57,342 nucleotides of DNA, filler included, from an uncultured virus (IMG/VR IMGVR_UViG_2049941000_000905) (30 parts of one record of this genome joined end to end with filler, not necessarily neighbours in it); one strand, 5' to 3'. Positions 2,555 through 54,390 are shown, numbered from the whole stretch's first letter. The notes: a model not told the origin generated them from the sequence alone. Translations and numbers: made by a program.

Positions 2555-2926
2555 TCACCGCTGCCGGAAGACCCGTACTTCATACGGTCGGAAAGCGGCA
2601 TGTGCTTCCGGCCCGGGATAATTGCACAGAACAAGTTCCGCTTTTTCAGAATCAAAGTGCTTCGGCAGTTTGATCCCGCACTCACGATCAGAAAACGAAC
2701 AGACCACCAGAACCCGTTCATCCTGAGTATATCGCTCATACATATAGAATTTGTCGTTCCAAGGGGCATATTCCCGGTAAGTGCCGGACAGTATGGCTCG
2801 GCTGTTTTTACGCAAAGCAAGACAACGTCGGTAGAAGTTCAGGATGCTGTCCGGATCCTCCTCTTCCCGTTCCACATTGACCTCCGGATAGTTCGGATTC
2901 ACGACGAACCACGGCTCCGCCTCCGA
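2555..2926 (-). CDS. GH13 alpha-glucosidase/oligo-1,6-glucosidase, C-terminal fragment
   Basis: PWFVVNPNYPEVNVE..DPDSILNFYR..LRPYE-like C-terminus. Confidence 0.85.
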   Translation of the reverse strand, partial: SEAEPWFVVNPNYPEVNVEREEEDPDSILNFYRRCLALRKNSRAILSGTYREYAPWNDKFYMYERYTQDERVLVVCSFSDRECGIKLPKHFDSEKAELVLCNYPGPEAHAAFRPYEVRVFRQR

Positions 2927-2936
2927 NNNNNNNNNN

Positions 2937-3086
2937 ATAAGCGCCGGAAAGCAGGGTCCGGCTGCTTTTGCGCAAAGCCAAGCACTTCCGGTAGAAATTC
3001 AGGATGCTGTCCGGATCCTCCTCTTCCCGTTCCACGTTGACCTCCGGATAGTTCGGATTCACGACGAACCACGGCTCCGCCTCCGA
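2937..3086 (-). CDS. allelic variant fragment of the same GH13 gene
   Basis: Near-identical to 2777-2926 with scattered substitutions. Confidence 0.75.
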
Positions 3087-3186: not shown

Positions 3187-4743
3187 GTCCTCGCGCACAG
3201 GATAACGGCTCAGGATCCCACGGTCCAGTCTTCAGACACACAGACCGCACAGAAGGTATCTTCCGGCGCGCCCATCGTCATCTATAAGGCAGCGGATACG
3301 GCAAGCACCGCCTCCAATGCAGAATCCACGGCTTCCCCCGCCGGCGATATGGACTATGCGCAGGTCGCCGCGATCGTAAAGGATTCCGTCGTGGAGATCA
3401 ATACCGAATACAAGACGGAAAATATCTGGTTCCAGTACACCACCGGCGGCGCAGGGTCCGGCGTCATCCTCACGGAGGACGGATATATCATCACCAACGC
3501 ACACGTCATTCTGGACAACGAACAGCAGAATGTGGCGGACACCGTCACCGTACGCCTTACCGACGGGACGGAATATCCCGCCGAGGTAAAAGCCTACGAT
3601 ACGGACGAGGATATCGCCATCGTCAAGATCGATGCGAAAGGGCTCAAGGCCGTCAAATGCGGAGACAGCGACAAACTGGTCGTCGGACAGAGGCTTGTGA
3701 TCGTCGGCAATCCGCTCGGCGAACTGGGCGGCACCGTGACCAACGGCATCGTTTCCGCTACGGAGCGGGAGATCCAGGTCGGCGGCGTGACCATGCATCT
3801 GATCCAGACCAACGCAGCTGTCAACCCCGGCAATTCCGGCGGCGGCATGTTCAATATGCGCGGCGAACTGATCGGCATCGTCAACTCAAAGTCTTTCGGC
3901 ACCGGTATTGAGGGACTTGGTTTCGCCATCCCGGTCAACAAAGCCATCTCCGTTTCCGAGGAGCTCATGACAAAGGGATATGTTTCCGGCAAACCCATGA
4001 TCGGCGTATCGTTTGAAGATGTTACCAATGACGCAAGCAGTTTCTTCTTCTTCGGCAGCACAACATCCAATGTTAAACCTGGCGTCTATGTCAGCAGCCT
4101 GGTTGAAGGCATGAACGACAAGGTGCTGAAGGAGGGTGACCGCATAATTGCTGTCAACGGCGAGGAGATCGGCTCTTCGGAAGATATCAAGGCGGCGGTG
4201 TCCGCGGCATCCATAGGAGACAAACTGACGTTCCAGCTTTACCGTGATGGGAAGTTGATGGAAGTAAAGGTCTCCGTTTATGAACGCACACCGGAAATTA
4301 TGGCTGCTGCCTCCTCCGATACCGAAGAAAAGAAGTCTGATCCCGATGAAGGAAAGAACCTGACAACCAAACCGGCAATCGGTGTTTCCATGCAGGAAGT
4401 CAACAACGGTTTCGCAAAGGAAGGCGTATATGTCACAGCTCTTGAAGAAGGCATGAACGACAAGGTCCTTCAGGTAGGCGACCGCATCGTAGCTGTAAAC
4501 GGTGATGAAATCAACTCCGTCTCCGATGTGAAATCCATTGTGGAAAACGCAAAAATCGGCGACAAGCTGAATTTCCAGGTCTCCCGCGAAGGAAAGTTGA
4601 TTTCAGTTGAAGTTACGGTTTTTGAAAAGGCTGTCGACGCAGAGGAGGATGCCCCTGCAAAAGAGGAGGAGACACCTTCGGAATCTGACGGCTTCTCCGG
4701 ATTTGGTGACTTATCTAAGTTCTTCGAACGGTTCTTCGGCTGA
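3187..4743 (+). CDS. htrA: HtrA/DegP-family serine protease with two PDZ domains (5' end missing)
   Basis: GSGVI, TNAHV, DIAIVKI, IQTNAAVNPGNSGG catalytic motifs followed by two related PDZ repeats. Confidence 0.92.
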   Translation, partial: VLAHRITAQDPTVQSSDTQTAQKVSSGAPIVIYKAADTASTASNAESTASPAGDMDYAQVAAIVKDSVVEINTEYKTENIWFQYTTGGAGSGVILTEDGYIITNAHVILDNEQQNVADTVTVRLTDGTEYPAEVKAYDTDEDIAIVKIDAKGLKAVKCGDSDKLVVGQRLVIVGNPLGELGGTVTNGIVSATEREIQVGGVTMHLIQTNAAVNPGNSGGGMFNMRGELIGIVNSKSFGTGIEGLGFAIPVNKAISVSEELMTKGYVSGKPMIGVSFEDVTNDASSFFFFGSTTSNVKPGVYVSSLVEGMNDKVLKEGDRIIAVNGEEIGSSEDIKAAVSAASIGDKLTFQLYRDGKLMEVKVSVYERTPEIMAAASSDTEEKKSDPDEGKNLTTKPAIGVSMQEVNNGFAKEGVYVTALEEGMNDKVLQVGDRIVAVNGDEINSVSDVKSIVENAKIGDKLNFQVSREGKLISVEVTVFEKAVDAEEDAPAKEEETPSESDGFSGFGDLSKFFERFFG

Positions 4744-7735: not shown

Positions 7736-7760
7736 NNNNNNNNNNTGTCCGTCCCAACCC

Positions 7761-8717
7761 GTTTGAGAGCAGTGCGATTTCATAGGGGTCTCAAACCCGA
7801 AACAGGTCTTGTTTGCACCGCAGGTCGTTTGAGAGCAGTGCGATTTCATAGGGGTCTCAAACCAGTTCGTCCGGCAACACGACGTACTACTAGTTTGAGA
7901 GCAGTGCGATTTCATAGGGGTCTCAAACTTAGAAATCGACTGGAACGAGCCGAAGATGTTTGAGAGCAGTGCGATTTCATAGGGGTCTCAAACTACCTAC
8001 ACCGTATTCCCAATCTTCAACCCGTTTGAGAGCAGTGCGATTTCATAGGGGTCTCTAACGTCTAAGATTCCAGACACGCCACACAGATCGTTTGAGAGCA
8101 GTGCGATTTCATAGGGGTCTCAAACTTCGACGTGACGTTCCGCGAGGTGACAGTGTTTGAGAGCAGTGCGATTTCATAGGGGTCTCAAACTAAGGGAAGA
8201 GCCGCCGGACAGGCTCAACCGTTTGAGAGCAGTGCGATTTCATAGGGGTCTCAAACTTTCGCCGGTCTGCGCCTTGTAGTCCTTCTGTTTGAGAGCAGTG
8301 CGATTTCATAGGGGTCTCAAACCTGTGCCATTGTAGCGCATATCGATGATGTGTTTGAGAGCAGTGCGATTTCATAGGGGTCTCAAACTGCGGTCCGTAA
8401 GGCCAACGATGTGATCCCGTTTGAGAGCAGTGCGATTTCATAGGGGTCTCAAACAGAAAAGGAGATCGGAATGGCAGTCACAAGTTTGAGAGCAGTGCGA
8501 TTTCATAGGGGTCTCAAACGAGCGAAAGGGTGATTGTCTTAGCCATCGCGTTTGAGAGCAGTGCGATTTCATAGGGGTCTCAAACTCGTCTCGGCCTGAA
8601 CTACACCACGCAGGGGTTTGAGAGCAGTGCGATTTCATAGGGGTCTCAAACCACGGTTCATTCTATCAGGACTTGTTTTCAGTTTGAGAGCAGTGCGATT
8701 TTGAAGGTCTTGAAATA
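7761..8717 (+). CRISPR. CRISPR array, type II-like: 15 repeats (14 full plus degenerate terminal), 14 complete spacers of 29-30 nt
   Basis: Repeat GTTTGAGAGCAGTGCGATTTCATAGGGGTCTCAAAC (36 nt) at 7761, 7827, 7893, 7958, 8024 (one A>T variant), 8090, 8155, 8221, 8287, 8353, 8419, 8484, 8550, 8616; degenerate copy at 8682 marks the trailer; leader side lost in gap. Confidence 0.98.
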
Positions 8718-17592: not shown

Positions 17593-17906
17593 ACTGCGTT
17601 TTTTTCGTTGTCTCCCTCGTCAGCATCGAAGAGGGTCTCGACGGTTTCGGCGTACATCTCGCCGAGGGCCGCGATGAGGTCGCTCTTCTCTGGGACGCTC
17701 GACATGATTTTGTCGATCTGCGCGTTTTTCAGCTTGCGGTGATGCGCGAAGAACGCATACCGGATCAGGATCGGAACCATGATGTTCGGCTTGTCCCCGA
17801 TCTCGCTGAGAATCAGGCCGCTCTGTTCAGCAGCTCTCGCCGCCTCGCGGGTGTATTCGAGGGTGTAGTCCGCTCCGTCGAGCGAAAGGGTGATTGTCTT
17901 AGCCAT
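17574..17906 (-). CDS. tail assembly chaperone (G-like), contains protospacer for spacer 12
   Basis: 110 aa, RBS AGGAGG, between major tail and tape measure genes; slippery A AAA AAC near 3' end. Confidence 0.8.
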   Translation of the reverse strand: MAKTITLSLDGADYTLEYTREAARAAEQSGLILSEIGDKPNIMVPILIRYAFFAHHRKLKNAQIDKIMSSVPEKSDLIAALGEMYAETVETLFDADEGDNEKNAVWKKSW

Positions 17907-17936
17907 CGCTAAAACCTCCTGTAAAATAGTTCAGAG

Positions 17937-27206: not shown

Positions 27207-27430
27207 NNNNNNNNNNAGAGTGGACTTGCCCGTTCCGGGAGGAAGAGAGATGGAGAGTATATCCAGCTCGTCATCTATCAGTCTTTGCATTGCCTGACAG
27301 ACGGGCATAAGCTGTTCACGGCGGGGTATCNNNNNNNNNNNNNNNNNNNNNNNNNNNNNNNNNNNNNNNNNNNNTTAATTAATTAANNNNNNNNNNNNNN
27401 NNNNNNNNNNNNNNNNNNNNNNNNNNNNNN

Positions 27431-27734: not shown

Positions 27735-27834
27735 NNNNNNNNNNNNNNNNNNNNNNNNNNNNNNNNNNNNNNNNNNNNTTAATTAATTAANNNNNNNNNN
27801 NNNNNNNNNNNNNNNNNNNNNNNNNNNNNNNNNN

Positions 27835-28032
27835 TGCCTCTGGCTGAAAAACCTTCCTCCGCTCGTTCATACGAACGTAGTGGAACCGCAAGGCTATTGG
27901 ATCGGAGCGCATGGACACGACAAGGCGAAAAAGGGAATGTCAAAGGGTTTCCGGGATCAGAAGACCCGGAGCAAGACCTTCCCCGGCATTGCCAAGGCAA
28001 TCGCAGACCAGTGGGGAGGGATCGCTGAGTGA
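27835..28032 (+). CDS. DNA cytosine methyltransferase, C-terminal fragment
   Basis: RSKTFPGIAKAIADQWG, the conserved C-terminus of the family at 26969. Confidence 0.85.
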   Translation, partial: CLWLKNLPPLVHTNVVEPQGYWIGAHGHDKAKKGMSKGFRDQKTRSKTFPGIAKAIADQWGGIAE

Positions 28033-28235
28033 AAACCATGTCCTACAACCCCGATGAAATCATGCGGGAAATCGAAGAGCGCGCGGAGTGGATCGAATTC
28101 CGCGCCTCTTCGAGGAAAAACAAAGACACATCGCTCGACGAATACAGAGCGATGTCGTATGAAAAGCGCAAGCTGGAGCATGAATGCGCTCTGGCGGTTG
28201 AAAAATGTCTATCAAAACGCTATGGGAGGGCGTGA
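28029..28235 (+). CDS. small hypothetical protein
   Basis: GTGA overlap with the methyltransferase stop; GGAGG RBS. Confidence 0.65.
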   Translation: MKTMSYNPDEIMREIEERAEWIEFRASSRKNKDTSLDEYRAMSYEKRKLEHECALAVEKCLSKRYGRA

Positions 28236-28237
28236 AA

Positions 28238-28513
28238 ATGAAAATCACCAGAACCATCAACGGTCAGAAGGTTGAAATCGAACTCACCGCAGAGGAACGC
28301 TATTCTGCATATATCGAGGAAAAGCGCGACCTCGACATCTCGGAACTATACTGGACGTGGCAGAACATCTGCGACGATGAGGAAATCGAGCGCGACTTGA
28401 CAGAAGACGAAGTCGAGGATGCTCTTGAACGCTACTACAATCGTGTAGAGTGGTGCGATCAGCAAGCCACCGAAATCCGGTATGAAATCCTACAGGACTA
28501 CCTTGAAGACTAA
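28238..28513 (+). CDS. small highly acidic protein (91 aa)
   Basis: GGAGG RBS; 28 D/E versus 10 K/R by manual count. Confidence 0.75.
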   Translation: MKITRTINGQKVEIELTAEERYSAYIEEKRDLDISELYWTWQNICDDEEIERDLTEDEVEDALERYYNRVEWCDQQATEIRYEILQDYLED

Positions 28514-28581
28514 CGCAGACTGACGGGGGAAACCTCCCCCGGTAATGCGGGACAGCGCAAGCTGTGCGGTCAGCACCCCGC
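28514..28581 (+). ncRNA. twister self-cleaving ribozyme (circularly permuted, P5-type)
   Basis: CGCA-GA-CTG / P1 hairpin GGGGGA-aacc-TCCCCC / TAA-TGCG (P2) / P3 ACAGC-GCAA-GCTGT / P4 GCG-GTCAGCACCC-CGC; both pseudoknots can pair. Confidence 0.8.
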
Positions 28582-28618
28582 TACAAATGAAAATCTATTC
28601 CACGAAGGAGGGCCGCAT

Positions 28619-28855
28619 ATGAAATTCACACGCGACCATGTACGCCAAGCGTACAACGAAATCGATCGCCGGGTGGAACACACCATCCGGCATGAAAACC
28701 TGACCGAACCGGAGGAAATCCACGACCTCATCGTCACCATGCTCCAGGGACTTTATGCTGTCTTCTGTGCCATTGCGGACAACTGGCCCGAAGTCAGGAT
28801 GTGGACGGAAGAAGAAGAGAGAAAGCGCGAATACTTCTGCGAAGAAGGGAAGTGA
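28619..28855 (+). CDS. small hypothetical protein (78 aa, acidic)
   Basis: AAGGAGG RBS directly downstream of the ribozyme. Confidence 0.7.
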   Translation: MKFTRDHVRQAYNEIDRRVEHTIRHENLTEPEEIHDLIVTMLQGLYAVFCAIADNWPEVRMWTEEEERKREYFCEEGK

Positions 28856-28860
28856 AACTA

Positions 28861-28890
28861 TTGACAAGCGAGAAAACATCGTGCTATAAT
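28861..28890 (+). promoter_or_regulatory. strong sigma-A promoter
   Basis: TTGACA-18bp-TATAAT with extended TG. Confidence 0.75.
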
Positions 28891-28920
28891 GGCATGGAGG
28901 AAACCGAAAGGAGAAACACC

Positions 28921-29367
28921 ATGCCAAGGGAGAAAAAACACGAGAACGGTTACGCTAAAAGCCCGGAGGGGGTGGCATACCGGAACCAATATCGCGGGGA
29001 GCATTACTCGCGAATGGAAATCTTGATACCACCAGAACTCAGGACAAAGATCGAAGAACGCGCAGCCGAAGAGGGCATCAGCAGAACCCAGCTCATCGTC
29101 AAAGCATTAACAGCATACATGGAGGCGGCATCCGAAAGCCGCAGAAAGGAAATCAAAATGAAAACCATCACCCTTCTCAACCGCATTCGCGCCATGACAA
29201 ACGAACAGCTTGCCAAGACCATCCGCGAAGCAGACGAATGGGATCCCGAAGCACTCGCCGAACTCTGCAAGAGAGCAGGACTCGAAAACGAATGGAAAGA
29301 AAGCGATGGGGACACGTTTGAGTCCGTCGCATACCGTGCCGCCGAAATTCTCGGCGTTGAAATCTAA
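28921..29367 (+). CDS. ribbon-helix-helix-like protein, in frame with a second small gene starting at 29158
   Basis: SRMEILIPPELRTKIEERAAEEGISRTQLIVKAL RHH pattern; second RBS/ATG at 29158. Confidence 0.7.
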   Translation: MPREKKHENGYAKSPEGVAYRNQYRGEHYSRMEILIPPELRTKIEERAAEEGISRTQLIVKALTAYMEAASESRRKEIKMKTITLLNRIRAMTNEQLAKTIREADEWDPEALAELCKRAGLENEWKESDGDTFESVAYRAAEILGVEI

Positions 29368-29385
29368 GAAGCAAGGAGGAACGCC

Positions 29386-29607
29386 ATGAGAATCGACCTG
29401 ACGGTAAGATACAAGTGCGGATGTGAAGAATGCATCCGCACGGTTATCGGTATTCCGCATGAACTCGCATCCGCTCCGCGATCCAAGGCAAACGACCGCA
29501 AGATCGCGGACTACATCAAGGAAAACTATCACATCAACTGGAGATGTCCGAAGGGGCACGGCATCGGAATCGACAGCGGTTTCGATGATATTATCGGCAT
29601 CAACTAA
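29386..29607 (+). CDS. small Cys/His-containing hypothetical protein
   Basis: AAGGAGG RBS; YKCGC...CPKGH possible zinc ribbon. Confidence 0.65.
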   Translation: MRIDLTVRYKCGCEECIRTVIGIPHELASAPRSKANDRKIADYIKENYHINWRCPKGHGIGIDSGFDDIIGIN

Positions 29608-29623
29608 CACGGGAGGACTGACC

Positions 29624-29688
29624 ATGCCGAAAAAGAAATATGAAGAGGGATACGATAAGTCCCCGGCGGGGATCGCGTACCGAAACCA
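29624..29688 (+). CDS. paralog of the 28921 RHH-like protein, N-terminus only
   Basis: MPKKKYEEGYDKSPAGIAYRN versus MPREKKHENGYAKSPEGVAYRN. Confidence 0.65.
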
Positions 29689-29698
29689 NNNNNNNNNN

Positions 29699-30227
29699 TC
29701 CCGGAAGCCGCCGAAACCTATCTGCAATCCCTCGCATCCCTCGGAAAATCACCGCACACCATAAGACTGTACACGACCGTCCTGCACCGTTTTGGGGACT
29801 TCCTCTCCCGCCTCGCCGGGGAAATCACTCCGGCAACCATCGCCGCATACCGCTCACAGCTCTCTGGGGGCGATCTGAGCGCGAACAGCGTCAGACAGCA
29901 CCTGACTATCATCCATGCGTTCTTCGCGAAAATAGAGGCCTTCTCGCGTGTCTCCGGCGGGGATGAGCGAAATCCCGTACTCCGGGAGGAAATCCCGGAG
30001 GAAGTCCCGGTGGACTACGACGATGTGCTGACAGCGGAAGAAATCAGGATCCTGCTCGACACGAAACCGAAAGCGACCACCGCCGGAATCCCGCTCCGAA
30101 ACTACTGCATCATCGTCATGCTCTTGCAGACGGGACTCCGCAATTCCGAACTCCGCGCCTTGACGGTGGAGGATCTCGACTTTGAAAACCACATCGTCAC
30201 CGTCAGGCACGGCAAGGGGTACAAGGG
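29699..30227 (+). CDS. tyrosine recombinase (XerD-like) fragment
   Basis: GKSPHTIRLY core-binding domain; RNYCII.MLLQTGLRNSEL..L...DLDF....V.VRHGKG.K. Confidence 0.9.
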
Positions 30228-30237
30228 NNNNNNNNNN

Positions 30238-30444
30238 GACGATCCCGCGAAAGCCCTCCGGGAACCGACCGTATTCTACAAGTGCATCAACATCTTCCCG
30301 CCGTCCGCCATATGGTATGAAACCGAGAAGGAAGCGAAGAAGGACGCAGACGGAATCGACACGATCTACGTCGGACCCATCGAGTTCTACGACGAGTACG
30401 AAATCCAGCGCATCAAGGATGAGATCGCATCCTATCCCGCATGA
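30238..30444 (+). CDS. small acidic hypothetical protein, C-terminal part
   Basis: Open frame from gap to stop; unrelated to the recombinase. Confidence 0.5.
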   Translation, partial: DDPAKALREPTVFYKCINIFPPSAIWYETEKEAKKDADGIDTIYVGPIEFYDEYEIQRIKDEIASYPA

Positions 30445-30450
30445 AAATTG

Positions 30451-30482
30451 CCCCCTCATTCCGAGGGGGCTTTTTCTTTTTC
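30451..30482 (+). terminator. intrinsic terminator ending the + strand island
   Basis: GCCCCCTC-attcc-GAGGGGGC followed by TTTTTCTTTTT, at a convergent gene junction. Confidence 0.8.
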
Positions 30483-30950
30483 GCTTGAAATCTTTTCGTA
30501 GCACGTCACGCCGACGGCAATTGCTTGCCAAACATCGGCGGACACCCCATAGAACGTGTCCGGGTCCTTCTTCGTTCCCTTTCCCGTCTTGAAATCTTTC
30601 TTCGCGTAGCGGTTTATCAGTTCCTGCCGTATGTTGGAATCCTTTGCTTTCATGCTCCCGCAGATTGAAATCTTTTCCTCTCTGCGGAAAATGTACTCCA
30701 CGGGACGTCCGAGTTCCTGCACGAATCGCCCGATCCAGATACAGGTGTCGAACACATCCGCGCCGACGGGCATTCCATAGGACGCGATCTTCTCTATCGC
30801 CACCGCATCCGCCTTGGATGAAATATCCCGCAGACACTTGACGAGTTCCACGTTTGCAGATTTGTTGAAATCGAGCAGCTTGAAATCCGGGAGGGAGAGC
30901 AGAGCATATCCCGTGAACTCGTTTCCGGGATCGAGCGCGAGAATGTTCAT
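30456..30950 (-). CDS. RuvC-like Holliday junction resolvase (phage)
   Basis: ILALDPG, VAIE.IASYGM, AKD, DVWQAIAV. Confidence 0.8.
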   Translation of the reverse strand: MNILALDPGNEFTGYALLSLPDFKLLDFNKSANVELVKCLRDISSKADAVAIEKIASYGMPVGADVFDTCIWIGRFVQELGRPVEYIFRREEKISICGSMKAKDSNIRQELINRYAKKDFKTGKGTKKDPDTFYGVSADVWQAIAVGVTCYEKISSEKEKAPSE

Positions 30951-31127
30951 GCTCTCACCTCACAGCAATCGCCGCCACGTTGAAAATCATCAGCACGATA
31001 ATCATAATCACCGTCGCGAGGAATTCCNNNNNNNNNNNNNNNNNNNNNNNNNNNNNNNNNNNNNNNNNNNNTTAATTAATTAANNNNNNNNNNNNNNNNN
31101 NNNNNNNNNNNNNNNNNNNNNNNNNNN

Positions 31128-34284: not shown

Positions 34285-35435
34285 CACCGTGAAGTCTTCC
34301 CGGTCGAATTTCACGTCTTCCGAAACGAGGCATCCCGTCGCGCCGACCTCCGCGTTCGCCCCACGAACGCCCTTTGCGTAATACTTGACATGACCGTATT
34401 CGGTGAAACGCGCCTTCTTCATCGCGTCCTCGGCTCCAAACTCAAAGAACATGGCGAGCTTGATTTCTTCTTCGGGGAAGAACGACAGAAGCCCTTTTTC
34501 GCCGTAAAGATCGGGTTGCGGCTTCGGCTCGACGTCGCTGCGTTCCCCCATCAGAGGGATCACATAGGGTCTCTTCCAGTCCGTGAATATCCCTTCCGGC
34601 ACTTGGGAGGAATAGCCGTCGAGGTCGTGCTCCGGGATTTCCAGCCCGAAGGCATACCGCACGACGGCATTGACGTCTTTGGTCGTCGCAAAGAATCCGT
34701 CCGTCTGCTTCACGGTCCTTCCCCGCAGAGCGAAATAGACGTACTTCTCCCCATCGGTATAGCCGCCGTGCCCGTGATGAAAGCCGCCGTGGTCCGTAAT
34801 CACGAGAAAGAGCGTGTCTTCGATCATACCGGCGCGGACATAGGCATCAAAGATCCTGCCCACCATCGCGTCCACGTTTGTGATGCAGTCGAGATGTCCC
34901 TCGGTTCCGTAACCGTGATGATGCCCCGCCCCGTCGGGATCGTCGATGTGAACGAACAAGAGNNNNNNNNNNGTCAAAGATCCTGCCCACCATCGCGTCC
35001 ACGTTTGTGATGCAGGCGAGGTGTCCCTCGGTTCCGTAGCCGTGATGATGCCCCGCCCCGTCGGGATCGTCGATGTGAACGAACAAGAGATCGGGCTTCT
35101 GTGTCAGGACGCATTCCACGACCTTCTCCGTGGTAGCCTCTCCGTCCGGTGCCGTCTGCATCAATACGCCGACGTCGTGCTCGATGATCCCCTTATTGAT
35201 CGGCTCCCAGTTGCTGACGCTGCACAGAACGCTGTCCGGGTATGCATGCCGCACGGTCGTGAAAATCGATGGCAGCGACTTGTTCGTGTATTCCCGCTGG
35301 CTGACGATCCCATTGGTCAGTCCGTGTATTTCCGGCTCCGCACCAAGCAGCATCGCGCCCCAGTTCTGCGCGCTGATGGTCGGGAAAAGACTGAGCGCGC
35401 GGGTTGTTTTCGCCCCGTTTTTGAAGATTTCATCC
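34285..35435 (-). CDS. alkaline phosphatase/NPP-family protein, overlapping fragments
   Basis: FPTISAQNW, LFVHIDDPDGAGH..GYG, ITDHGG...HGG. Confidence 0.85.
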
Positions 35436-38861: not shown

Positions 38862-39860
38862 CTATAAAAATATGTCCGTTTCGTTTTCTGTTTTTCTTTC
38901 TTTTCGGAACTGCATCGGGGACATCCCGAACTGATCTCTGAAACATCGGTTCAAATACGCAGCGCTGACCCCGCATTGACCTGCAATCTGCCTGACGGAA
39001 AGATCCGTATGAAGCAGCAAATGCTCCGCCAGTTTCGTGCGGGTTACGTTNNNNNNNNNNCCGAACTGATCTCTGAAACATCGGTTCAAATACGCCGCGC
39101 TGACCCCGCATTGACCTGCGATCTGCCTGACGGAGAGATCCGTATGAAGCAGCAAATGCTCCGCCAGTTTCGTGCGGGTTACGTTCAGTTTCTGCGAAAA
39201 CGTCATGCCGTATTCCTGCTGCAGGATCCGGCTGACCTGCCGGGTGCTGAACCTCATCATTCCAGCCAGTTCTCCAATAGACAGCTGCCTTCCATCCTGC
39301 CGAAATATCCCGTCAAAATACTCGTCAAGGATCGTCCGGTCGTCCGAAGAATGAGAACGTTTCCTGCTGCGAAGGGAATCCGAAGCGGATGTCTGCCGGA
39401 TCAAATGAATCAGGAGAACCGTACAGAGGCTCCGCACCATGTCGTACGCCCCCGGATTCTCTTCGTCCGCCTCCTCAAAAACCCAGCGGATAAGCTTTTG
39501 AACTTCAGGGTCGATCTCTCCTTTGATCCATGCGGAATTCTTCCACTCCTCGAACGGGGATGTTTTCTCCGCGGAGCGTATCTCCAGCCGGATGATGTAT
39601 CCGGAGCACTGTTCCGACACATTTTCCTCATGGTATACGTCTTTTCCCAGAAGGATCCATTCTCCCGGCAGTACGCGGACCGTTTCGTTGAAATCAAGCA
39701 CAAATTCCATCAAGCCTTCCTGTTGGAAGTGCATTTCAAGGAATGAGTGATGATGCGCATGCACATGGCATCGATCCGGTTTGGCATAGATCATACTGAT
39801 ATACACCATCGCGTCCATTACAGAAATCTCGCAGTCCGCATTGTACTTCAGCCATTTCAT
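38862..39860 (-). CDS. AraC-family transcriptional regulator (3' part duplicated across a gap)
   Basis: Cupin HAHHHSFLEMHF plus AraC double HTH. Confidence 0.9.
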   Translation of the reverse strand: MKWLKYNADCEISVMDAMVYISMIYAKPDRCHVHAHHHSFLEMHFQQEGLMEFVLDFNETVRVLPGEWILLGKDVYHEENVSEQCSGYIIRLEIRSAEKTSPFEEWKNSAWIKGEIDPEVQKLIRWVFEEADEENPGAYDMVRSLCTVLLIHLIRQTSASDSLRSRKRSHSSDDRTILDEYFDGIFRQDGRQLSIGELAGMMRFSTRQVSRILQQEYGMTFSQKLNVTRTKLAEHLLLHTDLSVRQIAGQCGVSAAYLNRCFRDQFXXXXNVTRTKLAEHLLLHTDLSVRQIAGQCGVSAAYLNRCFRDQFGMSPMQFRKERKTENETDIFL

Positions 39861-45374: not shown

Positions 45375-45474
45375 NNNNNNNNNNNNNNNNNNNNNNNNNN
45401 NNNNNNNNNNNNNNNNNNTTAATTAATTAANNNNNNNNNNNNNNNNNNNNNNNNNNNNNNNNNNNNNNNNNNNN

Positions 45475-45933
45475 ACGTGCTCTTCACACTCGGTTTCCCT
45501 CCGGCTCCGGTCCTTAAGACCTTAACCTCGCTGCATACAATAACTCGCCGGACCATTCTACAAAAGGTACCACATCGCGCCTTAACGCGCTTTGTGTGCT
45601 TGTAAACATATGGTTTCAGGTTCTTTTCACTCCGCTCCCGCGGTTCTTTTCACCTTTCCCTCACGGTACTTCTCCGCTATCGGTCATTGGGTAGTATTTA
45701 GGCTTGGATGATGGTCCACCCGTCTTCTCTGCGGATTCCTCGTGTCCGCAGATACTCCGGATACCGCTCGCTCTCCTCCGTTTTCACCTAAGTGACTCTC
45801 ACACGCTCCGGTGCGCCTTCCCATGCGCTTCGGTTAACTTGGAGATACGGTGTGCGGTCCTTACCCCGGAAGCATTGCTGCTCCCGGTTTGGCCTCCTCC
45901 GCGTTCGCTCGCCACTACTTGCGGAATCTCGTT
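45475..45933 (-). rRNA. rrl: 23S rRNA fragment (5' region), variant A
   Basis: TTTCACCTTTCCCTCACGGTACT and CGTTCGCTCGCCACTACT conserved motifs. Confidence 0.95.
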
Positions 45934-47653: not shown

Positions 47654-47882
47654 ACGTAGACGCGGAGGGTGACGAACTTCTTGCCCTTGGAATCGGTCTG
47701 GACGTCCGCCTCCTGGATCGTCCGGAGATTGGACGAGGTGGAGGACTTGGCCGTGACGGTGCCGCGGCTGTTGACGGTCAGGACTTCGATGTCGATGCTG
47801 TCGGAATACTTCGAGAAATCGTCGGAATAGAGCTTCTTCACGGAGCCGTTTCTCGACTGGGTGTACTGGATGAAGTCGATGT
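47654..47882 (-). CDS. allelic variant fragment of the S-layer protein
   Basis: Near-identical to about 51482-51711. Confidence 0.8.
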
Positions 47883-47892
47883 NNNNNNNNNN

Positions 47893-48538
47893 TCGTGCTC
47901 TTCACACTCGGTTTCCCTGCGGCTCCGATCCTTCAGATCTTAACCTCGCTGCATACAATAACTCGCCGGACCATTCTACAAAAGGTACCATATCGCGCCT
48001 TAACGCGCTCTATGTGCTTGTAAACATACGGTTTCAGGTTCTTTTCACTCCGCTCCCGCGGTTCTTTTCACCTTTCCCTCACGGTACTTCTCCGCTATCG
48101 GTCATCGGGTAGTATTTAGGCTTGGATGATGGTCCACCCGTATTCTCTGCGGATTCCACGTGTCCGCAGATACTCTGGATACTGCTCGCTCCTCTTCCGT
48201 TTTCACCTACGTGGCTCTCACACCCTTCGGCGCGCCTTCCCATGCGCTTCGGTTAACTCAAGGATACGTCTTGCAGTCCGAACCCCGGAGATATTGCTAC
48301 CTCCGGTTTGGCCTCTTCCGCTTTCGCTCGCCACTACTCGCGGAATCTCGTTTGATTTCTCTTCCTCCGGGTACTTAGATGTTTCAGTTCCCCGGGTTCC
48401 CCGCATATACCTATTGATTCAGCATATGCTCCGCGATTCTTCATCGCGGGGGTTCCCCCATTCGGAAATCTGCGGGTCAAAGCTCATTTGCAGCTCACCG
48501 CAGCTTATCGCAGCTTGTCACGTCCTTCGTCGGCTCCC
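47893..48538 (-). rRNA. rrl: 23S rRNA fragment (5' region), variant B
   Basis: GGTACTTAGATGTTTCAGTTC and CCCCATTCGGAAATC conserved motifs. Confidence 0.97.
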
Positions 48539-50435: not shown

Positions 50436-52501
50436 CTCTGCGCTCCAGAATTCGCCGATCTTGTTCGCGTCGGGGATGCTCAGGGTCACATTGGCAACAC
50501 TCGGCTTCTTCCCCATGAGAAGTGCGTAGCGGTACATGATGATGTACATCTGCTGGTGCGTGATATTGTCGCGCGGTCCGAAGGTGCCGTCGCCGTAGCC
50601 GAGGATCAGACCGTTGGCGGTCGCCCAGTTGATGTACGGAACGGCGTACTTGATGTCGCCCATGTCATAGCTGACGTCGGTGAAATCGGAGTTGGTGCCG
50701 TAGATGCGGAGGACGGCGGCATCCTTCTCTTCGGTCGTCGTGTAGTCGGAGAAGTACATTCTGCCGAGGGTCGTGACGAACTGGGNNNNNNNNNNTTCTT
50801 CATCGTGTAGGTCGCCACGCCGGTGGTCGCGTTCACGGTGTAGGCGCTGTTGCTCGAAGACGTCGTGGATACAGTCGTCGTGCCGAGCTTCACGGTGTCG
50901 ATCTGATAATTCTCGTTCGGCGTGATCGTGAAGGTGATGTCGTTGCCGTGCGCGATGGAAACTTCATTCTTGCTGTTGGCCGCGGGCTTCGCCGTGACCT
51001 TGCCGTTCGTCACATCCGCGATCTTCACGGTGTAGAGACCGGGAACCTCATCGCGTCCGAGGTCGGAATCGAAGGTGAGGGTCTCGCCCTTGTCGATGAG
51101 GAGGGTCTCGTCGAGATCGTAGTATTCAAACTTCGAGGTCGTCGAGGCGGTGTTGGTCACGCTCACGGTGTACTTGTTGCGGGAGCTGACGCCGATGGTC
51201 GTGGAGTAGAACGTGAGGTTGTGGCCGTTGAGGTCGATGGAGATGTAGCGCTCGGGATCGTAGTCGCTGTAGTTCTTCGTGACCTTCTGGTCCTCGCCGA
51301 GGCGGATGTTGTAGGTGCCGGAGGTTCTCGACGCATAGGAAGTCAGCGCGGAATCGCCGTCTTCGATGGCATCGAGGGCGTCCATGATGTCGTCATAGTA
51401 GGTGAGAAGGGTGCTGCCGTAGTATACGGACACGCCGCCCAGATCGCCGACCGAGACGTCAACATCGAAGTCTTCTCTGCCGACGTATACGCGGAGGGTG
51501 ACGAACCTCTTGCCCTTCGAATCGGTCTGAACGTCCGCTTCCTGGATGGTGCGCAGGTAGGAGGACGTCGAGGACTTCGTCGCTACCGTGCCGCGGCTGT
51601 TGACCGTCAGAACTTCGATGTCGATGGCTTCCGAATACTTGGAGAAGTCATCGGAATAGATCTTCTTCACGGAGCCGTTTCTCGACTGGGTGTACTGGAT
51701 GAAGTCGATGTCCGTCGTGGCAAAGCGGTACCCGACCGGATAAGCGGTCTTCTCCATCTGAACATTCACGATCTCGTAGAGCTCGAGCGAAGACTTGTTC
51801 GCGGTGATTGTCAGATCGGAGAACGTGAAGGTTCTCGTGAAATTCTGGCCTTCGTACGTATAATTGAACGGGATCTCGAGTTTGGTCTTGCCGACATCGG
51901 AATCCTTGATGGTGTAATTGAAAATGTTGGTCAGATCACTGTCCTTGAGGGTCTTCTTGGTCTCGTTGCCCAGCTTGATATAGATGGTCATACCCTCTGC
52001 ATTGAACTTGTCACCGGACTTATAGGTCGTGTTCTTGAGCTTGCTCGCAGAGTCGAGTTCAAGGGTGTATTCCTTCGGCTTGACGGTGATGTCTTTCGAC
52101 GCGCTCTTTCCGCCATAGGTGACNNNNNNNNNNNNNNNNNNNNNNNNNNNNNNNNNNNNNNNNNNNNNNNNNNNNNNNNNNNNNNNNNNNNNNNNNNNNN
52201 NNNNNNNNNNNTCGGCGTGATGGAATAGCCGGTGCCGCCGGAGATCTCGGCGAAAGTGCCGTCGTTGTAGGTGACCTTGATCTTGATTTCAGAGAGTGTG
52301 TCGCCGACGGTGAATTCCTTGCGGGTATCGGTGATTTCGATCTTATCCACGCCGAAGGATTCTACGGTCACAGTGACGTTCGTTGAAACGCCGGCGTATG
52401 TCACCACGACCGTCGTATCGCCCACGTCGAGTTTCCCGCCGGGTGTCCAAGAGCAGTTCGACGTCGTGAGGGAAATGTTTTCGTCCTTTTCGTTGTTGTT
52501 A
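50436..52501 (-). CDS. S-layer homology domain surface protein with Ig-like domains (several fragments)
   Basis: INWATANGLILGYGDGTFGP.DNIT SLH motif; KTTYKSGDKF and Big-like repeats. Confidence 0.8.
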
Positions 52502-54249: not shown

Positions 54250-54390
54250 TCGTGTCCGCAGATACTCTGGATTCTGCTCGCTCTTTTTCCGTTTTCGCCT
54301 AAGTGGCTCTCACACTCTCCGGCGCGCCTTCCCATGCGCTTCGGCTAACTCAAAGATGCTTGGTGCAGTCCTTACCCCGGTGATATTGCT
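54250..54390 (-). rRNA. rrl: 23S rRNA fragment, variant C
   Basis: Homologous to about 45741-45880 and 48159-48298. Confidence 0.9.

Follow-up and report, generated by a model that had tools for sequence, protein, structure and literature searches.

A type-P5 twister ribozyme between small co-directional genes of a probable phage accessory region

Does a run of small ORFs around a self-cleaving ribozyme in the DNA of an uncultured virus form a ribozyme-processed anti-CRISPR or anti-defence module, as had been proposed from the sequence alone, or is it a phage region of another kind? The window, which is the whole stretch of DNA analysed (57,342 nucleotides), turned out to consist of 30 contigs of 304-3916 bp each, concatenated via 29 linkers (44 N, TTAATTAATTAA and another 44 N), and the locus lies within a single contig of 3.2 kb (27835-31027). 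The stretch contains bacterial contigs (HtrA-like protease, MFS, amylase, IS66, AraC, rRNA pieces and a tRNA) as well as phage contigs (SPP1 portal, GP88 and DUF5055), and the coding strand varies between them. Because the window is made of 30 joined short contigs, it is meaningless to call the cluster inverted against the phage's main direction; the supposed island is an artefact of concatenation, with strands differing from contig to contig. The interval 27835-29688, said to be gap-free, indeed contains zero N. Two public contigs (8578 and 13496 bp) span all three pieces of the locus in identical order and orientation with 0 differences, and they bridge both gaps (202 nt for gap 1 and 752 nt for gap 2). 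In public assemblies the locus contig is thus part of a longer one, of 13.5 kb or more.

The contig 27835-31027 is best explained as part of a temperate phage or a prophage from a bovine-gut (rumen) community. Its phage origin is indicated by the PHROG matches of a methyltransferase, an Arc-like repressor, an integrase and a resolvase, and by the family of one small protein (C), which occurs in 8 viral contigs (41-122 kb) and whose top fold matches are unnamed gut-phage proteins. Most features listed by the sequence-only reading are real, the inverted orientation and the link of a CRISPR spacer to the locus being the exceptions. A mobile-element cluster of small genes, with a real ribozyme of a self-cleaving family inside a co-directional operon, is supported, which leaves the earlier interpretation as a whole partly supported.

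The upstream half of the locus contains the following features:

27835..28032, + strand: A, DNA methyltransferase truncated by the contig end, C-terminal 65 aa present (phrog_757, phrog_27471)
28029..28235, + strand: B, 68-aa ORF, pI 7.8, family-less (ORF call)
28238..28513, + strand: C, 91-aa very acidic ORF, pI 4.1, net charge -18 (small phage protein family)
28514..28581, + strand: type-P5 twister self-cleaving ribozyme, RF02684 (covariance model and fold)
28543..28544, + strand: predicted scissile U-A step (U30-A31, directly 3' of P1, followed by A and P2)
28619..28855, + strand: D, 78-aa ORF, pI 5.0, first gene 3' of the ribozyme (ORF call)

Gene A matches phrog_757 (DNA methyltransferase, E 2e-11) and phrog_27471 (E 3.2e-12). 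Its stop overlaps the GTG start of B (GTGA), and the gap between B and C is 2 nt. Strong RBSs had been claimed for the small co-directional ORFs, and GGAGG-type sites are found 5-10 nt upstream of B (68 aa), C (91 aa), D (78 aa) and F (73 aa, downstream). The description of the ORFs as acidic holds for C (pI 4.1), D (5.0), the C-terminal part of E (4.5) and the fragment I (4.3), but fails for B (7.8) and F (7.7). Protein C has 7 distant homologues among 1.84 billion representatives, and its homologues in IMG/VR are 8 ORFs of 83-112 aa on contigs of 41-122 kb. Its AF2 model (pLDDT 90.5) is composed of a beta-hairpin and three helices and has no meaningful analogue among solved structures (best PDB Foldseek E 0.84; best VIA Z 7.0, to generic helical chains), its best viral matches being the unnamed gut-phage proteins mentioned above. 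B and D have no match in Pfam, PHROGs, NCBIfam, PADLOC or PDB sequences. D has a single relative (P0010, 41% identity), and its low-confidence Atlas model (pTM 0.39, pLDDT 0.62) matched only unnamed proteins, with all scores <0.9.

The twister claimed for this locus is present. The match to twister-P5 (RF02684) exceeds the curated cut-off by about 8 bits (45.7 bits against a gathering score of 37.6), and its E is 2.4e-6 for the window and 1.3e-7 for the contig. The MFE fold (-31.5 kcal/mol, z -2.67) has the P2/P1/P3/P4 structure of the family, with 4 bp in P2, 7 bp in P1, 5 bp and a GCAA loop in P3 and 4 bp in P4; type P5 requires P1, P2 and P4, with P3 optional and the molecule open at P5, and this is the form of 28514-28581. 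An eighth P1 pair, which adjoins the cut, is A·G. Between their presumed partners, both pseudoknots can form with standard pairs, four in T1 (C7-G60, U8-A59, G9-C58, A10-U57) and two in T2 (G37-C64, G38-C63). Three of these pairs differ from the Rfam consensus on both sides, and the changes are therefore compensatory. The loop with the Rfam consensus CAAGCC reads GCACCC here, and most of the changes fit T1/T2 covariation; for one of them, a consensus loop A replaced by C, pseudoknot covariation fails to account. Near the U-A step, UAAUGCGG is retained. The assignment of T1/T2 partners (P4 loop to internal loops) follows PMC6154101, which also places the U-A cleavage site of twisters beside P1. 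On this basis the cut is predicted between U28543 and A28544, and the ribozyme would presumably be cleaved in vivo. Among the runs listed for this stretch there was no RNA run.

Compared with other RF02684 twisters, the one described here shares a score above gathering, P1-P4, T1 and T2, the U-A step beside P1, and a co-oriented intercistronic place near phage genes (PMC6765202, PMC8782182), and it differs in having other T1/T2 base pairs and a C for one consensus loop A. We regard it as very unlikely that the twister has decayed into an inactive relic, or that the match arose by chance, among ordinary small phage genes with no RNA processing. The replaced loop adenine and the A·G pair next to the cut would suit a relic, and conservation of the twister in relatives could not be demonstrated; the twister stretch is absent from the contigs of two independent samples (X5, X7). 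Yet the score lies 8 bits over the curated cut-off at E 2.4e-6 in 57 kb, the sequence keeps all four stems and the two pseudoknots and shows compensatory changes, and the place and orientation are those usual for viral twisters.

To examine this last point, we took those canonical twister cores in IMG/VR contigs that have 300 nt or more on either side (57 cores). The twister begins at the base directly 3' of C's TAA, and its core lies 29 nt from the stop of C and 38 nt from the ATG of D. In the comparison set, a same-strand stop within 60 nt upstream together with a same-strand start within 130 nt downstream was found for 36 of the 57 cores, against 4 of 57 in the antisense control, by an ORF calling that is crude (30 of the 57 cores are also spanned by a same-strand ORF in another frame). 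The median gaps are 26-29 nt upstream and 35-41 nt downstream, and the C-twister-D spacing is typical of these viral-contig twisters. The neighbouring genes are another matter: none of the 8 loci with C homologues carries any Rfam match at E <= 0.01, and a comparison of the 9 proteins of the locus contig with 3144 ORFs from the surroundings of 80 viral twister loci brought up no relative. The twister and its flanking genes do not form a conserved association here, and these genes, unlike the position of the twister, set the locus apart from the 80 others.

Bacterial twisters occur near phage genes, and processing of polycistronic mRNA has been suggested for them (PMC6765202). An intercistronic twister beside a phage regulator/integrase operon is a known kind of setting. 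In Mu-like early operons from IMG/VR, where a twister lies between regulator and transposase or before gam, the early/accessory genes are likewise co-directional and the twister likewise follows right after a stop codon, some tens of bases before the next start. Mu Gam-like nuclease inhibitors account for 5 of the 31 genes directly downstream of viral-contig twisters. The present locus differs from these operons in its tyrosine integrase, with no Mu-type transposase or Gam and no shared proteins. As for the proposed ribozyme-processed module, the real twister within a co-directional operon stands, but it separates only C from D, and the cluster as a whole is not processed.

Taken together, we consider it likely that this is a phage accessory/lysogeny region with two co-directional units, in which the twister cuts a shared transcript between C and D. 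This reading starts from the observed parts and their order, the family membership of the ribozyme and its typical intercistronic position. The first unit would enter from outside the contig and comprise the methyltransferase gene A, the tightly coupled B and C, the twister and D. The twister would fold co-transcriptionally and cut between U28543 and A28544, so that the methyltransferase-B-C message would end in a 2',3'-cyclic phosphate 3' of the P1 hairpin, while D and any read-through into the second unit would become 5'-hydroxyl RNA. With distinct RNA ends produced by the cut, the two halves of the operon would, as we propose, have separate stabilities and translation. The model for the downstream RNA is borrowed from glmS, whose self-cleavage likewise yields a 5'-hydroxyl downstream RNA with a fate unlike that of the uncut message (PMC6765202). 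However, glmS is metabolite-dependent and lies in a 5'-UTR, whereas the twister is intercistronic with no ligand known. A faster decay of 5'-OH RNA in this host is assumed.

The second unit starts immediately behind D:

28861..28890, + strand: consensus sigma-70-type promoter with extended -10 (TTGACA-18-TATAAT, 12/12 with TG)
28890..28926, + strand: 8-bp perfect inverted repeat TGGCATGG/CCATGCCA, from the -10 end to the start codon of E (fold)
28921..29367, + strand: E, 148-aa protein with N-terminal RHH (~79 aa) and a 69-aa acidic module (phrog_582)
29386..29607, + strand: F, 73-aa Cys-rich ORF (CxCxxC...C), pI 7.7, family-less (ORF call)
29624..29688, + strand: G, second RHH paralog, only its start visible before gap 1 (alignment to E)

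The consensus promoter had been recognised correctly, all 12 positions of 28861-28890 agreeing and the TG extension being present. It begins 5 nt past the stop of D, and there is no terminator-like site between D and the promoter. The fold of 28884-28932 is stable (-14.8 kcal/mol, z -4.76; none of 200 shuffled sequences folds as well), and RNA from 28897 on is unstructured (-1.5 kcal/mol). The TGGCATGG/CCATGCCA repeat could be an operator, or a hairpin that sequesters the start codon in read-through RNA. In the preferred two-unit arrangement, the hairpin 28890-28926 would hide the start codon of E on read-through RNA and leave it free on RNA from E's promoter, so that E would, as we propose, be made only from its own promoter. 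E probably autoregulates this promoter. We infer this role of the hairpin, like the fates of the two RNA halves, from the layout of the locus.

The claim of two RHH-like paralogs was borne out. The RHH part of E matches phrog_582 (Arc-like repressor, E 2.8e-6) and phrog_7325 (CopG-like, 1.7e-4), as do its homologues P0005, P0007 and P0008, and the matches to Pfam RHH_1, RHH_5 and RHH_10 reach only 13-14 bits, under the cut-offs. The 21 visible residues of G align to the N-terminus of E with 15 of 22 identical positions (E 4e-9). The reading frame of G is not that of the integrase (269 nt separate the start of G from the integrase frame), which makes G an ORF of its own. The acidic module of E is in frame with the RHH, with no stop between them, and has its own RBS and an ATG at 29158. 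In alignment A1, the RHH followed by 'AASESRRKEIKMKT' continues into unrelated C-terminal modules in P0002, P0003 and P0005, and the C-terminal module of E recurs with other N-termini in P0004 and P0006.

An N-terminal RHH with an acidic C-terminal module, a small ORF 19 nt later and a strong promoter with an inverted repeat might also suggest a toxin-antitoxin-like pair, in which E would act as the antitoxin, its RHH domain repressing E's own promoter and its acidic tail neutralising a small toxin, F. Sub-threshold matches of E point in this direction (VapB and RelB in NCBIfam, E 0.017-0.02; MazE6 and EndoAI chains in PDB, E 0.34-0.37), but every antitoxin match is insignificant, and the C-terminal module of E also stands behind the non-RHH N-termini of P0004 and P0006. 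Searches of Pfam, PHROGs, NCBIfam, PADLOC and PDB sequences gave no match for F, neither to a toxin nor to a defence protein, and no recognisable type II toxin stands beside the RHH gene; we judge such a pair very unlikely.

The remainder of the second unit and its surroundings are as follows:

29125..29162, + strand: 38-nt translation-initiation junction (RBS and ATGAA), with an exact second copy inside gap 2
29699..30227, + strand: H, internal part (175 aa) of a tyrosine recombinase, with the SAM-like domain and the start of the catalytic domain
30238..30444, + strand: I, C-terminal 68 aa of a predicted 161-aa protein, pI 4.3 (start at the second junction copy)
30450..30470, either strand: bidirectional intrinsic terminator hairpin between the convergent I and J (reads on both strands)
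30456..30950, - strand: J, 164-aa RuvC-like Holliday junction resolvase, convergent (phrog_1770, E 4.2e-16)

The recombinase of the earlier description is a tyrosine integrase fragment, matching PF00589 (1.7e-10, residues 109-174), PF13495 (9.4e-8) and PF02899 (both on residues 5-78), phrog_1 (E 1.6e-24) and, under the cut-off, XerA/XerD-type NCBIfam models; it stops at ...HGKGYK, the remainder, which would carry the C-terminal catalytic residues (His-Arg-His/Trp-Tyr), being within the 752-nt gap 2. The closing terminator is likewise real, and its hairpin (30450-30470) is bidirectional. The second unit would thus run from the consensus promoter through E, F, G, H and I and end at this terminator, facing the resolvase J. 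Protein I has an unusable predicted model (pLDDT 41). Its relatives P0033-P0037 are 159-165 aa long (three of them 161) and begin with MK or MT.

The 38-mer occurs once in the visible window, and its second copy, on the 8578- and 13496-bp public contigs, is separated by 440 nt from the end of piece 2 and by 274 nt from the start of piece 3. Two exact direct copies, 1735 bp apart, therefore bracket the integrase block (the C-terminal module of E, F, G and the integrase) in two public contigs, and it is conceivable that they are recombination sites by which the integrase excises or exchanges this cassette, swapping the partner of the RHH. The RHH indeed carries, behind one junction peptide, C-terminal modules of three unrelated kinds (P0002; P0003/P0005; the window's own), contigs of two independent samples carry 29114-29147 (34 nt, 4 differences) between unlike flanks, and the ATG of the second copy gives I exactly the length of its relatives (5 + 274 + 207 nt = 486 nt, i.e. 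161 aa and a stop). However, the repeat consists for the most part of a ribosome site and start codon, a similar GCAGAAAGGA...ATGAAA precedes other genes of related phages (L004/L005), and it may be a reused translation-initiation sequence and a hotspot for ordinary homologous recombination. The sole recombinase-type inverted repeat seen is a weak 5-bp GCGGC/GCCGC pair, and no RHH-I fusion exists among the 5 relatives of I. An exact 38-mer twice within one contig is also unusual for short-k assemblers, which produced this contig. Some mycobacteriophages have repeated start-associated sequences before many genes, and the 38-nt junction and L004/L005 resemble them as a ribosome-site/start-codon stretch reused before unrelated genes; the difference is that here two exact 38-nt copies bracket an integrase block and one copy is translated through in frame within an RHH protein. 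On balance, we find the role as recombination sites improbable.

We then return to the anti-defence question. The inference of an anti-CRISPR module is unsupported, as no ORF matches a known Acr or another anti-defence family. The statement that no ORF was recognised as a known Acr stands: 10 ORFs and fragments gave no such match in Pfam, PHROGs, NCBIfam and PADLOC (I among them, which also has none in PDB sequences), and B, C, D, E, F and I have no anti-defence match among all PDB chain sequences. As to Acr, Ocr and ArdA, against which a search had been suggested, the small ORFs showed no resemblance by the HMMs of these four libraries, by PDB sequence or, for C (model pLDDT 90.5), by fold. 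A perfect spacer match had been brought forward in support. The spacer at 8520-8549 does equal 17880-17909 (30/30), but its target is on another contig (14942-18819); the CRISPR array (7759-8717), the protospacer and the twister locus are on three separate contigs of a binned assembly, and there is no cas protein among the 29 window ORFs scanned with PADLOC. Given this position of the target and a scan in which cas genes did not turn up, the spacer match no longer lends the locus support.

A locus of the acr type, in which one or more of C, D, the C-terminal module of E, F and I would inhibit CRISPR-Cas or restriction, with the RHH proteins as Aca-like repressors and E as a built-in regulator-effector fusion, is unlikely in our view. 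Several features would agree with it: the ORFs are small, partly very acidic and have strong ribosome sites, an inverted repeat touches the -10 of a consensus promoter, an orphan methyltransferase gene heads the cluster, a CRISPR spacer from the bin has a 30/30 match in a phage-like contig, and Gam-like nuclease inhibitors follow viral twisters in the 5 of 31 cases given above. RHH regulators of acr operons also have precedent, since the inverted repeat bound by Aca14 lies across the -10 and AcrIF25 contains an RHH domain (PMC13551039). With the acr-aca operons described there, the locus shares small ORFs, an RHH protein and a strong promoter with a -10 inverted repeat, and with regulator-fused Acrs the fusion of an RHH domain to another module, E being likened to Aca14 by description only. 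Against this, B, C, D, E, F and I lack a sequence match to known anti-defence families or solved structures, and the confident model of C has no Acr/Ocr/ArdA-like match (Foldseek E 0.84; VIA Z 7.0). The layout departs from the usual promoter-acr-aca order: the acidic C and D lie in the unit upstream of the promoter, and the RHH gene E comes first after it, not last. Neither an Acr-like ORF nor cognate cas genes were seen. Besides, the spacer target lies elsewhere, and an autoregulated RHH gene is just as characteristic of a repressor or an antitoxin. One of the small ORFs lacking a family could still have an anti-defence role.

In conclusion, the twister and its position fit known type-P5 twister settings in phage operons. 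A broader reading, which we hold to be very improbable, would combine three layers in a regulated anti-defence and lysogeny switch: the twister cut would insulate the upstream methyltransferase operon, the hairpin hiding the start codon would restrict translation of the RHH gene to RNA from the gene's own promoter, and a constant RHH head would be joined to interchangeable C-terminal effector modules at the 38-nt cassette flanking the integrase. If true, such a switch would provide regulator-effector fusions like the regulator-fused anti-CRISPRs, with the integrase or the repeat driving the exchange of modules.

The window, 57,342 bases in all, is not a single molecule but consists of 30 contigs (304-3916 bp each) joined by 29 linkers which each consist of 44 N, TTAATTAATTAA and 44 N (e.g. 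27331-27430 and 27735-27834); runs of 10 N within the contigs are scaffold gaps. The coding strand varies between contigs and the GC content ranges from ~0.39 to ~0.59, as expected for a binned assembly, and the order and orientation of the contigs are uninformative. We called 99 ORFs in the window and scanned 84 with Pfam, the other 15 being 7 of the contig under study, 3 within the CRISPR array and 5 that overlap rRNA. The matches are a mixture of bacterial and phage genes: the bacterial content comprises an HtrA-type protease, an MFS transporter, an amylase, IS66, an AraC regulator, 16S and 23S fragments and a tRNA, and the phage content an SPP1-type portal, GP88, DUF5055 and DUF6378. The rRNA-bearing contigs share stretches of 84-96% identity (45465-45933 with 47883-48352, 47654-47882 with 51483-51711, and 48159-48298 with 54251-54390), which suggests that the bin contains pieces from several rRNA operons or from more than one organism. 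The entire finding sits within contig 27835-31027. The description of its small genes as inverted against the main direction of the phage is meaningless because the orientation of each contig in the chain is arbitrary, and windows of linker-joined contigs give no basis for arguments from gene orientation or "self"-targeting.

The features listed by the sequence-only reading (small ORFs, strong RBSs, twister, promoter, terminator and recombinase) were recovered as real, and a GGAGG-type site lies upstream of every + strand ORF of this contig.

Features of contig 27835-31027
27835-28032, + strand: A, DNA methyltransferase, last 65 aa (phrog_757, 2e-11)
28029-28235, + strand: B, 68 aa, GTG start overlapping the stop of A
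28238-28513, + strand: C, 91 aa, pI 4.1, net charge -18, starting 2 nt past the stop of B
28514-28581, + strand: twister ribozyme (Rfam type-P5 model)
28619-28855, + strand: D, 78 aa, pI 5.0
28861-28890, + strand: promoter, 12/12 consensus with TG extension
28921-29367, + strand: E, 148 aa
29386-29607, + strand: F, 73 aa, four cysteines
from 29624, + strand: G, cut by a gap after 21 codons
29699-30227, + strand: H, tyrosine recombinase, 175 aa (PF00589, 1.7e-10; phrog_1, 1.6e-24)
30228-30237: second gap, between H and I
30238-30444, + strand: I, last 68 aa of a protein
30450-30470: hairpin reading as a terminator on both strands
30456-30950, - strand: J, RuvC-like resolvase (phrog_1770, 4.2e-16)

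The final ~55 nt of the methyltransferase gene (27960-28017) occur at 85-88% likeness in many other contigs. This stretch was matched in all four metagenome runs compared, at up to 245x depth in one, and is a motif widely shared among rumen phage methyltransferases. A blastn search of phage GenBank with 27835-29688 gave a single match, of 83 nt, in the methyltransferase end.

The twister scores 45.7 bits against the Rfam type-P5 model (gathering score 37.6), and a model-free thermodynamic fold of its 68 bases gives the exact stems of the family at -31.5 kcal/mol (z -2.67; 1 of 200 shuffles as good). In this fold, P2 pairs positions 1-4 with 33-36, P1 pairs 11-17 with 22-28, P3 pairs 39-43 with 48-52 and is closed by a GCAA loop, and P4 pairs 53-56 with 65-68. 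Both pseudoknots can form between the unpaired 5' segment and the P4 loop, T1 through C7-G60, U8-A59, G9-C58 and A10-U57, and T2 through G37-C64 and G38-C63; three of these pairs are altered on both sides relative to the Rfam consensus, as a working fold would require. PMC6154101 places twister cleavage at the U-A step beside P1, and from our mapping onto the present sequence we infer a predicted cut at U28543-A28544. Two caveats attach to the fold: one consensus loop adenine is replaced by C, and the P1 pair adjoining the predicted cut is A·G. The exact twister stretch had no match in viral contigs, and the contigs from two independent metagenome samples (X5 and X7) do not cover it.

The first base of the twister is the base directly 3' of the C stop codon, and its conserved core starts 29 nt past that stop and ends 38 nt short of the ATG of D. 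For comparison, IMG/VR was scanned for the canonical twister core, which matched 83 stretches; the 80 loci retrieved contained 65 distinct cores, of which 57 had 300 nt or more of flanking sequence on either side. A core was taken as intercistronic when a same-strand ORF (at least 50 aa) ended within 60 nt upstream and another started within 130 nt downstream. This was found for 36 of the 57 cores and for 4 of 57 in the antisense-strand control, with median gaps of 26-29 nt upstream and 35-41 nt downstream. ORF calling was crude, and at 30 of the 57 cores an ORF in an alternative frame runs across the core, but the contrast between strands is clear. A typical viral twister lies between two cistrons and points in their direction, and the twister studied here is a textbook case of such placement. 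When the 67 ORFs flanking the 36 cores were scanned against PHROGs, 49 had no match. Among the others, three loci have the order regulator (phrog_2345), twister, Mu-type transposase (phrog_310), and in five a twister precedes a Mu Gam-like protein (phrog_491); by these matches, twisters tend toward early or accessory operons. Such placement agrees with a review (PMC6765202), in which bacterial twisters and hammerheads have common gene neighbourhoods and lie near phage genes, the role of bacterial and phage twisters is left open and processing of polycistronic transcripts is proposed. Similar statements on placement and purpose are made for other ribozyme classes in PMC8782182. Six viral contigs carry two canonical cores each on the same strand, 0.8-3.6 kb apart (locus pairs L019/L026, L032/L033, L041/L042, L049/L050, L061/L062 and L016/L089), and such pairs would excise a defined RNA segment.

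Downstream of D, the consensus promoter leads into E, whose residues 1-79 match Arc-like and CopG-like ribbon-helix-helix (RHH) PHROGs, with Pfam RHH models below their cut-offs. There is no stop in E ahead of an internal ATG, so the RHH domain reads through into a 69-aa acidic module. An 8-bp perfect inverted repeat, TGGCATGG (28890-28897) and CCATGCCA (28919-28926), spans from the last -10 base to the E start codon. Folded as RNA, it reaches -14.8 kcal/mol with the ATG buried (z -4.76; 0 of 200 shuffles as good; the repeat was spotted by eye, which makes this significance post hoc). A transcript starting ~7 nt past the -10 would lack the left arm and is predicted to be unstructured (-1.5 kcal/mol), and by this modelling read-through RNA alone would form the strong hairpin. 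The start of G is flanked by a weaker 7-bp analogue (29594-29630; -9 kcal/mol, z -1.6). In both RHH paralogs, E and G, the start codon falls within the right hairpin arm. The 8-bp repeat may equally be a DNA operator of the RHH protein; no operator-like repeats of at least 10 nt were found near the promoter.

We found seven relatives of E and compared them in an alignment. Two are stand-alone RHH proteins of 88-90 aa (P0007 and P0008), in three the RHH domain is joined, as in E, to the junction peptide AASESRRKEIKMKT and then to unrelated sequence (P0002, P0003 and P0005), and P0004 and P0006 carry the C-terminal module of E behind different N-termini. With E as a single query, no relative was confirmed in viral contigs, and with an alignment of the RHH relatives none was confirmed from 156 pattern matches in genomes, 43 in viral contigs and 597 in metagenome contigs.

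The stretch is present only in bovine-gut metagenome runs, two of which are probably the source of the window and hence are not independent support. The public contigs of these two runs, of 8578 and 13496 bp, contain all three visible pieces of the contig in the order and orientation of the window and without differences. Elsewhere in the window, several 10-N gaps have flanks that are 90-98% identical copies of 116-160 nt (2778-3086, 34847-35089 and 38926-39185); these gaps are unmerged overlaps, probably of strain variants, and not missing sequence. In contrast, the two gaps of the present contig conceal 202 (gap 1) and 752 (gap 2) real bases. The G start lies 269 bases before the integrase reading frame, an offset which makes G a separate ORF; it would have at most ~85 codons and lie directly before the integrase start or overlap it. 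The visible integrase piece is followed by 440 bases, room for the remaining catalytic domain, then a 38-base copy of 29125-29162, then 274 bases and then the third piece.

In these public contigs the two exact 38-nt copies are 1735 bp apart and flank a block that consists of the C-terminal module of E, then F and G, then the integrase; gene I starts at the second copy. The 38-mer is the end of the RHH part of E and holds AGAAAGGAAATCAAA, then ATG, then AA; at 29125-29162 it supplies the ribosome site and start codon of the C-terminal module. The ATG of the second copy is in frame with I and predicts a full protein of 161 aa (5 + 274 + 207 = 486 bases). Relatives of I, searched for after this prediction, have 161, 161, 161, 159 and 165 aa and start with MK or MT; this agreement with the prediction is evidence for the second copy and its register. 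The model of I (pLDDT 41) was too poor for a fold search. Contigs from two independent samples hold 34 junction bases with unlike flanks. The junction peptide and bases recur with differing flanks, so the junction is a module boundary that this phage group reuses; it could be either an integrase target or simply a conserved initiation region in which homologous exchange occurs. A 26-mer of the junction had no match in viral contigs, and its sole match in metagenome contigs (L001), an unrelated, eukaryote-like sequence without bacterial genes, was treated as chance. In phages with homologues of C, genes are preceded by GCAGAAAGGA(A/T)AAA...ATGAAA, like the 38-nt junction (L004/L005, ~3975-4001 and 4290-4310), which hints at a translation-initiation sequence reused in this group.

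The small genes had been proposed as a ribozyme-processed anti-CRISPR or anti-defence module, supported by a perfect spacer match. There is indeed a CRISPR array at 7759-8717, with ~15 copies of the 36-nt repeat GTTTGAGAGCAGTGCGATTTCATAGGGGTCTCAAAC and 30-nt spacers, and the match of spacer 8520-8549 to 17880-17909 is real (30/30). However, the protospacer, which is followed by TAAAACC, belongs to a different, phage-like contig, where it forms the start of a DUF5055 gene. Array, target and the present locus are on three separate contigs of one bin, and none of 29 window ORFs scanned with PADLOC matched a cas or other defence protein. An orphan methyltransferase at the head of the cluster fits an anti-defence role, and PMC13551039 reports that acr operons can be regulated by an RHH protein, Aca14, and that AcrIF25 contains an RHH domain. 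Against this, profile searches and PADLOC matched B, C, D, E, F, G and I to no known anti-defence family, and B, C, D, E, F and I had no match to PDB chain sequences at E < 0.1. The model of C is confident (pLDDT 90.5; a beta-hairpin and three helices), but it has no significant solved analogue (best Foldseek E 0.84; best VIA Z 7.0, on generic helical chains) and the only proteins it resembles are unnamed ones of gut phages (best E 8.9e-4, TM 0.56). In the Atlas, C had no usable match, and D matched unnamed helical proteins only, with all scores below 0.9. C has seven distant homologues in 1.84 billion representatives and eight in large viral contigs; as a single query against viral contigs, C gave no confirmed relative. 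Rfam matched nothing in the eight homologue loci, two of which have an integrase ~3 kb downstream, and the surrounding genes are mostly without annotation (89 of 110 called ORFs scanned; the shortest ORFs, the C homologues and the duplicates between L004 and L005 were excluded). On balance, the anti-CRISPR idea is unsupported, and we regard it as improbable for this locus.

In conclusion, the locus belongs to a known kind: an accessory operon of a phage that contains a twister ribozyme. Most likely, self-cleavage between the cistrons would uncouple the methyltransferase-B-C message from D, and the same cut would also uncouple it from read-through into the RHH/integrase operon, which has its own promoter and is probably autoregulated by E. 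The purpose of bacterial and phage twisters is an open question (PMC6765202), and this instance does not answer it. Intercistronic, co-oriented placement is the rule in our survey of 57 viral-contig twisters (36/57 vs 4/57 antisense), and the present locus is a compact test case, in which a stop codon, a ribozyme, one small gene and a consensus promoter follow each other and read-through RNA alone would conceal the E start. Should the cut and the hairpin indeed shield the regulator-integrase operon from transcription that starts upstream, this would give such ribozymes a concrete job.
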